A stretch of 14,667 nt of DNA from a virus (Monodnaviria; Loebvirae; Hofneiviricota; Faserviricetes; Tubulavirales; Inoviridae): IMG/VR virus record IMGVR_UViG_2609459846_000001; one strand, 5' to 3'. Position 1 is the first letter of the stretch, and each line of letters opens with the position of its first letter. Both the position numbers and the translations under genes were made by a program. Shown here in pieces: positions 1-13,201 of the stretch. The notes under the pieces were generated by a model. That model searched no databases. It was given only the letters and a program-made list of their open reading frames with translations, and was not told the origin of the DNA.

Positions 1-3155
<3,155 letters not shown>

Positions 3156-3185: not shown

Positions 3186-3611
3186 ATGAATCAAATTTAC
3201 GACAGTTTTCCGTTTCCTTCCCCTGAAGGTTTTACCGCAGGTATGACAATGGCGGGATATTTTATTCACGCCACTGTCATAAATGATGAGGAGTTAAAAC
3301 CCACGGGTTCTCATTATAACCCTGAGGCCAAACCCAAATATGCCATTGTTATTGCCTATCCGTATGAGGACCGAAAATTAAAAGTCCGCCGTGAGGAGCA
3401 TGAGCGCTTTTCCTGTACTGAGGAGGATTTTAAATTTTTTAATTCATGTCCTGATTTGCAGGGCAAACCTGTTTATCTCACGGTGGATGTTAACTCATGG
3501 TCGACAGGCTCTGAACGTCATGGTGTCTGGTATCGTTTTATTTCCGGCTCCATGAAACGTTTTGACGGTCAGCCGCTGGGTGCACTGCCCGCTGGTAAAG
3601 ATAAGAATTAA
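3186..3611 (+). CDS. Hypothetical protein; putative ssDNA-binding protein by position (gV-like)
   Basis: 141-aa ORF with a GAGGAG ribosome-binding site 8 nt upstream, lying between the rep and coat genes where filamentous phages encode their ssDNA-binding protein. The assignment is positional only. Confidence 0.4.
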   Translation: MNQIYDSFPFPSPEGFTAGMTMAGYFIHATVINDEELKPTGSHYNPEAKPKYAIVIAYPYEDRKLKVRREEHERFSCTEEDFKFFNSCPDLQGKPVYLTVDVNSWSTGSERHGVWYRFISGSMKRFDGQPLGALPAGKDKN

Positions 3612-3616
3612 GTTTC

Positions 3617-3790
3617 ATGTCTGTTAATTCGGATTCGGTTTCCACGCAAATTAATGCTATTTGCGTGGGGATACCTGATGTGTCGGGGGTTGATTCCTCG
3701 GCGTTTTTAACGGGATTTTCACTGCCAGTATTTTGTTTTTTTCTTGGCATGATTATTTCCACAATTTGGAGTTTAATAAGGAGACTTTAA
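3617..3790 (+). CDS. Small hydrophobic protein, putative minor coat protein (g7p/g9p-like); not in the supplied ORF track
   Basis: 57 codons, translated by hand as MSVNSDSVSTQINAICVGIPDVSGVDSSAFLTGFSLPVFCFFLGMIISTIWSLIRRL. The C-terminal half is a predicted transmembrane helix followed by basic residues. It starts 5 nt after the previous stop and ends 2 nt before the major coat gene. An in-frame GTG at 3680 is an alternative start. Confidence 0.4.
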   Translation: MSVNSDSVSTQINAICVGIPDVSGVDSSAFLTGFSLPVFCFFLGMIISTIWSLIRRL

Positions 3791-3792
3791 TT

Positions 3793-4041
3793 ATGTTTGC
3801 AAAAATGACCAATCTTTTTAAGGGTGTTAATAAGAAAGTTGCAGCCTTATCTTTTTCCGCTGCTTCTGCTCTTGCTGTATCTCCGTCTTTTGCTGGTACA
3901 GTCGATTTTTCATCATTGACTAACAGCATTGATATGTCTTCTGTTTCTGCTGTTATTCTTTCTATCGGTGTTGCAGGAGTTACAGTTTATCTGACTTTTG
4001 CTGGCGTTCGTAAAGTATGGGGAGCCCTCAGAAGTATCTGA
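3793..4041 (+). CDS. Major coat protein (g8p-like) precursor
   Basis: 82 aa from the ATG at 3793, with AAGGAG 9 nt upstream. Signal peptide MFAKMTNLFKGVNKKVAALSFSAASALAVSPSFA, then a ~48-aa mature peptide with a hydrophobic core (VSAVILSIGVAGVTVYLTFAGV) and a basic C-terminus (RKVWGALRSI). A strong terminator follows. Confidence 0.7.
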   Translation: MFAKMTNLFKGVNKKVAALSFSAASALAVSPSFAGTVDFSSLTNSIDMSSVSAVILSIGVAGVTVYLTFAGVRKVWGALRSI

Positions 4042-4059
4042 GTTGTTTTTTATGAGGAA

Positions 4060-4083
4060 GGGCGGATATTCCGCCCTTTTTTT
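4060..4083 (+). terminator. Rho-independent terminator after the major coat gene
   Basis: GGGCGGA-tat-TCCGCCC forms a 7-bp GC-rich stem, followed directly by seven T residues (4077-4083). Confidence 0.65.
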
Positions 4084-4175
4084 GGATATTTATGTTTGAT
4101 TTTATTTTTATGATGTTTGGCTCCCTTTGTGGGTTATGTTGCGTCATTGGGTTTAAATCTAATTTGTGAGGTTTT

Positions 4176-4346
4176 GTGTCTACTCAAGAATTTAAAGTTA
4201 AATTGCCGAAATACACTATCGAGCAGATAGAAAGAATTATTTACAATAAAAATACAACCATTGAAGAATATGTTGTTTCAGTTATTCTTGAAAAAGCCGA
4301 TCAGGATTTCCGTCGAATTGTAAAACCATTTAGTTTTTACTGGTGA
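4176..4346 (+). CDS. Small hypothetical protein (56 aa, GTG start); not in the supplied ORF track
   Basis: Hand translation: [60 protein letters not shown] lies 4 nt upstream of the GTG. The stop (4344-4346) is 4 nt before the g3p start, which suggests translational coupling. Hydrophilic and charged. Confidence 0.3.
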
Positions 4347-4350
4347 TGAA

Positions 4351-5928
<1,578 letters not shown>

Positions 5929-5942
5929 TAATCAGGTGGTGA

Positions 5943-6233
<291 letters not shown>

Positions 6234-6244
6234 GAGGGTGATTT

Positions 6245-8559
<2,315 letters not shown>

Positions 8560-8819
8560 TGCCGCAACGCGGCATGTAAGGCGGCATGATGATGTTTCAT
8601 ATGATGCAGCTGCCTGACCGCCGAAGCCAGGGAGAGATTACAGAGCAGCAGGAGACAGCGCAACGCGCCGCCTGCCAGACCGCCTTTAAACAGGCAGTTA
8701 GCGAGACGAACGGCACGAGACGTGAGTCGTACAGGTGTTGATGTGATTAGTTGATGAAATTGATGATGACTTACAGCGATGCTTAGTTATCCGCCATCTT
8801 AAGTTCAATATGAATCATA

Positions 8820-8887
8820 GCCCGCCGGAACGGCAGTTGCCCCCGCCCGCAGGGGCGAGGACGGGAGCAACTGCCGTTCCGGCGGGC
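8820..8887. repeat. Perfect 21-bp inverted repeat with a 26-nt spacer (GC-rich hairpin) in the intergenic region after the secretin gene
   Basis: The left arm GCCCGCCGGAACGGCAGTTGC (8820-8840) is the exact reverse complement of the right arm (8867-8887). The spacer has its own short nested stem (CGCCC/GGGCG). No T-tract follows. Confidence 0.85.
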
Positions 8888-9016
8888 AATGATGCTATAT
8901 ACTCTTTAATGATGGATGTAACGTAATATTCTCTTTCCTATTCTGACATTATACACAGTACAAAAACTCATAACAAAGCACGAATGATAGCAAGCTTGTT
9001 TTTGTTATTTTTTTAA

Positions 9017-9784
<768 letters not shown>

Positions 9785-9867: not shown

Positions 9868-9922
<55 letters not shown>

Positions 9923-12656: not shown

Positions 12657-13201
12657 GCCTGATGCGCTACGCTTATCAGGCCTACAATTCTCGCGCCACT
12701 CGTAGGCCGGATAAGGCGTTCACGCCGCATCCGGCAATGGTGACAAATGCCTGATGCGCTACGCTTATCAGGCCTACAGATTCTCGCGCCACTCGTAGGC
12801 CGGATAAGGCGTCCACGCCGCATCCGGCAGTGGTGGCAAATGCCTGATGCGCTACGCTTATCAGGCCTACAGATTCTTGCGCCATTCGTAGGCCGGATAA
12901 GGCGTTCACGCCACATCCGGCAATGGTGACAAATGCCTGATGCGCTACGCTTATCAGGCCTACAGATTCTTGCGCCATTCGTAGGCCGGATAAGGCGTTC
13001 ACGCCACATCCGGCAATGGTGACAAATGCCTGATGCGCTACGCTTATCAGGCCTACAGATTCTTGCGCCATTCGTAGGCCGGATAAGGCGTTCACGCCAC
13101 ATCCGGCAATGGTGACAAATGCCTGATGCGCTACGCTTATCAGGCCTACAGATTCTTGCGCCATTCGTAGGCCGGATAAGGCGTTCACGCCGCATCCGGC
13201 A
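12657..13201. repeat. REP/BIME array: six tandem ~93-bp units, each with two oppositely oriented REP palindromes
   Basis: Units begin at 12657, 12749, 12842, 12935, 13028 and 13121. Each contains GCCTGATGCGCTACGCTTATCAGGCCTACA and GTAGGCCGGATAAGGCGTTCACGCCGCATCCGGCA, the classic E. coli REP consensus types. The array sits between the DUF1116 gene and the carbamate-kinase-like gene. Confidence 0.9.

Follow-up and report, generated by a model that had tools for sequence, protein, structure and literature searches.

The stretch of DNA considered here (the window; 14,667 nucleotides (nt), IMG/VR record IMGVR_UViG_2609459846_000001) is a piece of Escherichia coli chromosome that carries a filamentous (inovirus) prophage of ~9.9 kb between yahK and yahJ and is 100% identical to the corresponding sequence of E. 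coli strain E203449 (NZ_CM128603.1). Between the genes for the major coat protein and the g3p-like adsorption protein lies a 56-codon open reading frame (ORF), designated ORF56. Comparison with diverged relatives indicates that ORF56 is a real gene under purifying selection at the protein level, structure prediction places its product in the ribbon-helix-helix (RHH) fold class, and it probably acts as a small transcriptional regulator produced from the assembly operon of a prophage lineage specific to E. coli. The interval and its two flanking genes contain the following features:

3793–4041, major coat protein gene (PHROG virion structural protein, E = 2e-14; weak match to Pfam Phage_Coat_B)

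4058–4085, + strand, intrinsic terminator with a 9-bp GC-rich stem, a 3-nt loop and a T7 tract

4092–4169, + strand, ORF25, an unannotated ORF of 25 codons encoding the hydrophobic peptide MFDFIFMMFGSLCGLCCVIGFKSNL

4176–4346, + strand, ORF56, encoding a 56-residue protein, supported by conservation, selection and predicted fold

4351–5928, + strand, gene for the g3p-like adsorption protein, assigned by a PHROG match in its C-terminal part and by synteny

The block that follows the coat-gene terminator thus runs, in order, ORF25, ORF56, g3p, g6p, Zot/g1p and secretin/g4p. Read from the sequence, ORF56 starts with GTG at 4176 and stops with TGA at 4344–4346. A Shine-Dalgarno-like GAGG (4168–4171, + strand) lies 4 nt 5' of the start and overlaps the stop codon of ORF25 (TGA, 4167–4169), and the ATG of the g3p-like ORF at 4351 comes 4 nt past the ORF56 stop. 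The terminator, AAGGGCGGA-TAT-TCCGCCCTT followed by T7, is a perfect inverted repeat that forms the dominant hairpin of the RNA fold (z = -3.07) and is kept in the more distant relatives described below as type B. An earlier note on this DNA had described the 56-residue frame with its GTG start, upstream GAGG and 4-nt distance to g3p, had placed it behind the coat-gene terminator and had called it unannotated; all of these points were confirmed, the last of them for the source record. ORF25, which is in the same frame and ends 6 nt upstream, went unnoticed in that note.

No coding sequence is annotated at ORF56 in NZ_CM128603.1, whereas sister genomes list it as a hypothetical protein (WP_179148870.1, WP_000107046.1). 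Some other genomes leave it unannotated even though their copy is intact and begins with ATG, which rules out the GTG start as the reason for the missing annotation. By length alone, ORF56 is not beyond chance, because the window holds 120 ORFs of at least 30 codons; what sets it apart is its conservation, seen in both selection and synteny.

Homologues were sought with a word-indexed search, then with an exhaustive phmmer search over 1.84 billion representatives, and then with a profile search of 5.8 billion proteins. The word-indexed search returned near-identical E. coli proteins only. With phmmer, a second type was found (P0005, 63 residues, 46% identity, E = 8e-8), and querying with P0005 yielded 19 more clusters at 78–100% identity; the profile search, run with the family alignment, recovered no relatives outside the group. 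The family consists of 23 protein clusters, and every cluster with a named organism comes from E. coli. Type A comprises the 56-residue protein of the present window, and type B comprises proteins of 58–64 residues. The two types are ~45% identical and align without gaps over 55 codons. Invariant in both are E5, I18, E19, I22, N26, T28, Y32 and E39, together with D42, D44, F45, R46, V49, K50, P51, F52, S53 and F54 (D42-x-D44-F-R-x-x-V49-K-P-F-S-F54) in the most conserved stretch, codons 42–54 (4299–4337, + strand), which spans the end of the second predicted helix and an unstructured tail. The start position is also kept, with ATG used by type B and by most copies of type A, and GTG by the window plus three fetched type-A loci (L001, which is the source record, L003 and L004).

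In the ~30 loci examined, the position of ORF56 between coat gene and g3p is constant, and it recurs in at least three phage backbones. The first of these combines an IS110 transposase, a GPA-type Rep and phospholipase D (PLD) cargo. Among type-B carriers, this backbone has the GPA-type Rep and the PLD cargo and sits beside ybiB, as does the type-A prophage L002, with contigs that stop before any transposase; the second has a GPA-type Rep and is integrated between hipA and a fimbrial operon, in some cases in tandem; and the third has a G2P_X_C-type Rep and g5p, with an XRE/CI-like helix-turn-helix (HTH) gene.

Selection was assessed from the ratio of non-synonymous to synonymous change (pN/pS). 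Among type-B lineages, pN/pS in the ORF56 frame is 0.13–0.30 (e.g., nine synonymous versus four non-synonymous changes; binomial P of 4e-4 to 1e-2), whereas frames +1 and +2 give values of 0.7–3 and contain 2–8 stops, against none in the ORF56 frame. Between types A and B, synonymous sites are saturated (pS 0.70–0.75) while the non-synonymous distance (dN) is ~0.5, and frames +1 and +2 show a pN/pS of ~1.1 with no synonymous excess. Thus, when ORF56 is checked for conservation and codon-level selection, as had been proposed, diverged relatives keep the frame at the same position and the purifying selection is frame-specific; the refuting possibility of an unconserved frame, or of a region that is only a g3p promoter or leader, is thereby removed.

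The comparison within type A gives a different picture. Here, ORF56 shows 8–10 differences from L032 and L034 (4.7–5.8%), against ~0.5% in the flanking genes, and these are 8:0 (L032) and 9:1 (L034) non-synonymous to synonymous, one of them being the GTG/ATG start. The 7 and 8 amino-acid changes left are mostly conservative (V/I, I/L, E/Q, A/S), and the non-synonymous excess is not significant against neutrality (P ~0.18 for 7/7 replacements). Because nearly all changes are non-synonymous, the within-type-A data give no sign of purifying selection, and the evidence for constraint therefore comes from the deeper comparisons. Diversifying selection may lie behind this type-A hot spot, or it may mark a small patch of recombination. 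Most type-A substitutions fall, as read from the alignment, on third codon positions of an overlapping +1-frame ORF (4117–4230); this ORF was rejected as the gene, since type B has 4–5 stops in it and a pN/pS of 0.7–1.6.

It is nonetheless highly improbable that ORF56 is a decaying or non-functional frame in a region whose sole role is to provide the g3p leader and ribosome-binding region. Such a reading could draw on the type-A substitutions, on the frequency with which annotation pipelines skip ORF56, on its lack of a significant family match, on the existence of two frameshifted variants (P0003 and P0004), and on the scrambling of the type-B C-terminal end by slippage in a run of G residues. 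However, no stop or gap interrupts the frame over 55 codons at 45% amino-acid identity, at a divergence where synonymous sites are saturated, and the type-B synonymous excess is confined to that frame. Intact type-A copies occur on ~700 contigs, whereas each disrupted variant is found on one; the slippage touches only residues past the conserved FSF(D/Y)(F/W) end; and the alignment gives a confident, recognisable fold.

The neighbouring ORF25 is found in every relative, with the type-B peptide reading MWEFIFMMYGSLCGLCCVMGFKSNM, and 6 nt separate its stop from the start of ORF56, a gap that never varies. The Cys-rich peptide is invariant within each type despite at least eight synonymous changes in type B and three in type A; ORF25 is therefore clearly a gene, under strong purifying selection, and it may encode an exclusion peptide or a minor coat protein of the g7p/g9p kind. 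Type B has lost the GAGG (TGAGTTTTTATG) and keeps only the arrangement of stop, 6 nt and start. To judge from the sequences, what is conserved is therefore the translational coupling of ORF56 to ORF25. The ribosome-binding region of g3p, in turn, lies within the 3' end of ORF56. In type A this region reads GGTGAT followed by ATG, and in type B GGGGGTGG or a GGGAGGT run stands ahead of a GTG, which in several variants forms a GTGA overlap with the stop of the ORF. Across the type-B loci (L009–L029), this G-run varies from G5 to G7, which gives five tails after the conserved FSFDF and alters the overlap of the ORF stop with the probable g3p GTG start. The ORF25 ATG follows the T-tract of the terminator at a distance of only 6 nt. 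Given this short gap and the absence of any promoter above chance, the block is probably transcribed by terminator read-through, or else from an undetected promoter. An Rfam search found no RNA family match in or near ORF56.

Structure prediction for the ORF56 protein depended on the alignment. From the single sequence, AlphaFold returned two helices at low confidence; with a 22-sequence alignment, the predicted local distance difference test score (pLDDT) reached 81, with residues 1–11 extended, a helix at 12–25, a second helix at 29–49 and a floppy tail, the last seven residues having low pLDDT. The predicted elements are as follows:

4188–4208, + strand, codons 5–11 (EFKVKLP), predicted beta-ribbon, extended in the model and aligned with Arc residues 9–15

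4209–4322, + strand, codons 12–49, helix A (12–25), loop K-N-T-T and helix B (29–49), with a block pLDDT of 80–90

Alternation of polar and hydrophobic residues along the strand, with a polar residue (Ser, Thr or Asn) starting helix B, is the defining pattern of RHH proteins. In the type-A strand, polar E5, K7 and K9 alternate with hydrophobic F6, V8 and L10 and are followed by P11; the type-B strand is E-I-R/K-L-Q-I-P. E5 never varies in the family, and P11 hardly does. N26 and T28, where helix B starts, are likewise invariant. The register of the strand matches residues 9–15 of Arc, QFNLRWP (Q9-F10-N11-L12-R13-W14-P15).

Searches of the predicted structure agree with this pattern. Foldseek returned RHH proteins for 47 of the top 50 matches in the PDB, at a probability of up to 0.99; these matches include StnY, KacA, Arc, AmrZ, TacA, CopA(SO), CopG, the ORF56 protein of pRN1, PutA, AtaR, MatP, ParD and NikA, with target-normalised template-modelling scores of 0.6–0.85 and root-mean-square deviations of 1.4–3 Å. 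In the viral library BFVD, most named matches are Arc-type, CopG, ParG or repressor proteins. Profile comparisons point the same way: a PDB profile search gave weak matches in the correct register to Arc (E = 0.54) and KacA (E = 0.69), direct alignment to Arc with hhalign gave P = 0.006, and all 19 type-B members match the PHROG entries 'Arc-like repressor' and 'transcriptional repressor' at E ~0.005. Among sub-threshold Pfam matches (HTH_40, E = 0.019; RelB-like, E = 0.15; nothing relevant in NCBIfam), HTH_40 scored under its 27-bit cut-off and was rejected, as the fold searches return RHH and not HTH. The protein is thus best placed, on predicted structure and not on demonstrable sequence homology, in the RHH (beta-alpha-alpha) fold class as a new sequence family. 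The extended, unpaired N-terminus of the monomer model would be compatible with the intermolecular two-stranded antiparallel sheet of RHH proteins.

Two independent structure searches therefore answer in favour of RHH the question, posed in the earlier note, of whether the product has a ribbon-helix-helix or other DNA-binding fold. The accompanying idea of a small regulator gains the predicted fold, from which the regulatory role is inferred; an operator or target, by contrast, was not found. On the reading of ORF56 as a regulator, which is somewhat better than even in our estimation, two chains would pair their N-terminal strands into an antiparallel ribbon whose polar side chains (E5, K7 and K9 in type A; E5, R/K7 and Q9 in type B) would read a short repeated operator in the major groove, with the conserved N26-x-T28 at the start of helix B clamping the phosphate backbone. 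The protein would then regulate transcription, most probably as a repressor tuning phage gene expression, with its own assembly operon or another phage promoter as possible targets; it might, for instance, keep the expression of g3p, g1p and g4p, which are potentially harmful, within limits. The invariant tail D-x-D-F-R-x-x-V-K-P-F-S-F could serve higher-order oligomerisation or the binding of a partner protein.

Several results weigh against this interpretation, in addition to the type-A substitution pattern. No operator emerged from repeat scans around the gene and in the intergenic region, and the repeated words examined were either not above chance or showed no difference between the protein types: words resembling TCAAGAAT within ORF56 are marginal and missing from type B; the GTTGATG repeats at 8737–8768 do not differ between types A and B and show no enrichment; and a 17-nt direct repeat flanking the terminator is T-rich and unconvincing. 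Promoter-like sites near ORF56 are no commoner than in shuffled sequence. All Foldseek E-values fall between 0.05 and 1, as expected for a 56-residue query, and ORF56 has no significant match to an RHH model in Pfam or NCBIfam. Finally, across the three replication backbones, ORF56 is inherited with the morphogenesis module and not with the replication/lysogeny module, and some carriers (those with G2P-type backbones) have a separate XRE/CI-like HTH gene upstream of rep. These last two observations indicate that ORF56 is not the obvious immunity repressor; it does not lie in a regulatory or replication module, divergent from rep, as the sole repressor of its phage. For the same reasons, a regulator internal to the module is the more likely form of the proposed role.

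The RHH fold is also shared by many antitoxins, several of which (KacA, TacA, AtaR, ParD) appear among the structural matches. ORF56 could then be a partner-binding protein of antitoxin type (an orphan antitoxin or anti-defence protein), forming a dimer with or without DNA binding, whose tail neutralises the ORF25 peptide or a host toxin or defence protein. In line with this proposal, the most conserved part of the protein is the short tail after helix B, as in those antitoxins, and ORF56 is always paired with ORF25 at the fixed 6-nt spacing. We know, however, of no precedent for a protein antitoxin that neutralises a hydrophobic peptide of 25 residues. Other inoviruses do carry RHH antitoxins, an example being that of the type II toxin-antitoxin system PfiAT of Pf4 (PMC13048266). 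At all of the ~30 ORF56 loci, the gene is flanked by the coat gene, ORF25 and g3p, with no adjacent protein-toxin gene of the kind that marks type II systems (GNAT, ParE/RelE, MazF, etc.) and no Pfam toxin domain. The tail of ~7–13 residues is, moreover, far shorter than typical toxin-binding regions. An antitoxin-type function is thus unlikely.

How ORF56 varies among related phages bears on two further proposals. Relative to the type-B phage L013, the prophage shows protein identities of 88% for the coat protein, 98% for g6p, 95% for Zot and 98% for the secretin, against ~40% for ORF56 and 67% for g3p. In a sliding comparison, nucleotide identity is 45–80% over 4090–5680 and 90–100% elsewhere. 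The low-identity block spans ORF25, ORF56 and the N-terminal three quarters of g3p (first ~1300 nt), such that the ORF25/ORF56 cassette and the receptor-binding part of g3p diverge together as one block. ORF56 therefore belongs to a variable receptor-side cassette, although its co-variation with that cassette may be physical linkage and nothing more. Since ORF56 is a replacement hot spot in type A while the adjacent ORF25 changes only synonymously, the two genes could be conceived as a lineage-specific cassette ahead of g3p, either a type-matched superinfection-exclusion or immunity module or a new pair resembling toxin and antitoxin, with the RHH part under diversifying selection. We regard this as quite unlikely.

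The other proposal, an accessory role in assembly, would have ORF56 bind a double-stranded element in the phage DNA, for example a hairpin of the packaging signal or origin, while its tail links the DNA to g1p/Zot and g4p. The gene does accompany the morphogenesis module in each of the three replication backbones, its tail is as invariant between types as the assembly proteins are (Zot, secretin and g6p, identities as above), and the module ends in a conserved GC-rich region with hairpins and GTTGATG repeats. To our knowledge, however, no inovirus needs a DNA-linking assembly factor of this kind. The nearest deposited phages, the saliva inoviruses OR148978.1 and PP511687.1 (Zot ~40% identical), have only 51 and 83 nt between the putative coat and g3p genes, which were assigned by gene order alone, and no ORF there. 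An essential role in assembly is therefore improbable, and the proposal as a whole is very unlikely; the same comparison identifies ORF25 and ORF56 as a lineage-specific addition. In further searches against deposited phage genomes, tblastn of ORF56 gave chance matches only (E ~9) and blastn of the phage gave two short matches only, while a Zot-based scan found nothing in genome contigs and only near-identical phages in viral contigs. To judge from these sequence searches, the ORF56 family occurs only in this E. coli inovirus group.

The regulator reading is best set against known RHH proteins of mobile elements. Like ORF56, Arc and Mnt of Salmonella phage P22 and CopG of plasmid pMV158 are mobile-element-encoded beta-alpha-alpha proteins of ~45–55 residues, with an alternating N-terminal strand followed by Pro and a polar residue at the N-terminus of helix B. 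ORF56 differs from them in having no significant sequence similarity (identity in structural alignments is mostly 5–25%), in its longer helix B (21 residues) with a conserved aromatic tail, in the lack of a detected operator, and in the position of its gene, which lies in the structural/assembly operon and not in an immunity or copy-control region. The antitoxins TacA, KacA and AtaR (DUF1778) and ParD resemble ORF56 in having a long helix B and, at the C-terminus, a conserved extension; what separates ORF56 from them is the absence of an adjacent cognate toxin gene in any locus and a tail much shorter than a toxin-binding domain. Among filamentous phages, ORF13 of Pseudomonas phage PMBT54 is an RHH protein similar to the omega repressor, encoded in the accessory region, for which the authors propose a role in episome maintenance (PMC10534721). 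Both are small RHH proteins of filamentous phages, with the regulator role of ORF56 being predicted; ORF56 differs from ORF13 in lying between coat and g3p and in lacking detectable sequence relatives outside its own phage group. The UPphi phages (PMC7307601) were considered as relatives and set aside, as they form a different, IKe-like group whose extra genes, by comparison with I2-2, IKe and M13, would lie in the main intergenic region.

The gene order of the present prophage, with coat gene, intrinsic terminator, adsorption-protein gene and then homologues of g6p, g1p and g4p, is that of the Ff phages (M13/fd/f1) and IKe. To the best of our knowledge, neither Ff nor IKe has a gene between gVIII and gIII, whereas the present lineage has two in the coat–g3p interval, ORF25 and ORF56. 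The description of ORF56 in the earlier note as an extra ORF relative to Ff-type phages is supported. New here are a sequence family without detectable outside relatives, its position between coat and g3p, and its fixed pairing with a 25-residue membrane-type peptide. A bona fide gene and its neighbour ORF25 are thereby added to a filamentous prophage of E. coli that is widespread but uncharacterised and occurs in commensal as well as diarrhoeal isolates from humans, and in which RefSeq calls ORF56 inconsistently and ORF25 never. With ORF56, the assembly operon of this phage group would contain a candidate DNA-binding regulator that has no counterpart at this place in the model Ff phages, and the gene could offer a concrete handle on the control of virion production in integrated inoviruses. 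As RHH regulators are among the commonest small proteins of phages and plasmids, the result extends a known theme and opens no new one.

The remaining genes of the prophage are as follows:

133/184–1149, IS110-family transposase (RefSeq annotation)

1152–3155, Rep (Pfam Phage_GPA, E = 6e-49)

3186–3611, ORF for a 141-residue protein

3617–3790, ORF for a 57-residue protein

5946–6233, DUF2523 protein (g6p; Pfam)

6245–7303, Zot (g1p; Pfam)

7300–8559, secretin (g4p; Pfam)

9086–9784, + strand, PLD-family gene (weak Pfam match; RefSeq annotation)

The PLD-family gene matches PLDc_2 at E = 5e-5, just under the Pfam cut-off, and carries the RefSeq name phospholipase D family protein; as the prophage extends to a right end near 9880–9900, the gene falls within it and is cargo. 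At the other end, the IS110-family transposase heads the prophage, its stop codon 2 nt before the Rep ATG. Near-identical prophages occupy differing chromosomal sites, yahK|yahJ and hcxB|ybiB (L001, L002, L022/L023), and the coat–g3p stretch was matched in 27 of 5426 complete E. coli genomes, at 1–4 places per genome. By analogy with the Nf/MDA phages of Neisseria, this suggests integration by the transposase. The sister phages L019/L020 and L026–L029 have no transposase and sit between hipA and the fimbrial operon, with a tandem duplicate in one genome. This site, presumably the dif region of the E. coli map, gives an arrangement typical of XerCD-dependent inovirus integration.

Within g3p, a linker of Gly-Thr/Gly-Ser dipeptide repeats (~5400–5580) differs in length among otherwise near-identical prophages, and the L002 gene is longer by 126 nt. 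The intergenic region at 8560–8900, which is kept in all backbones up to ~8770, contains GC-rich inverted repeats, three GTTGATG/TTGATGA repeats (8737–8768) and a hairpin at 8814–8893 with 35-nt arms that are 91% complementary; these elements are candidates for an origin or packaging signal. Outside the prophage, five tandem copies of naRNA4 (CssrE; Rfam RF02564, 72–78 bits), derived from host repetitive extragenic palindromic elements, lie at 12705–13146 (+ strand) in ordinary E. coli chromosome and bear no relation to the prophage.
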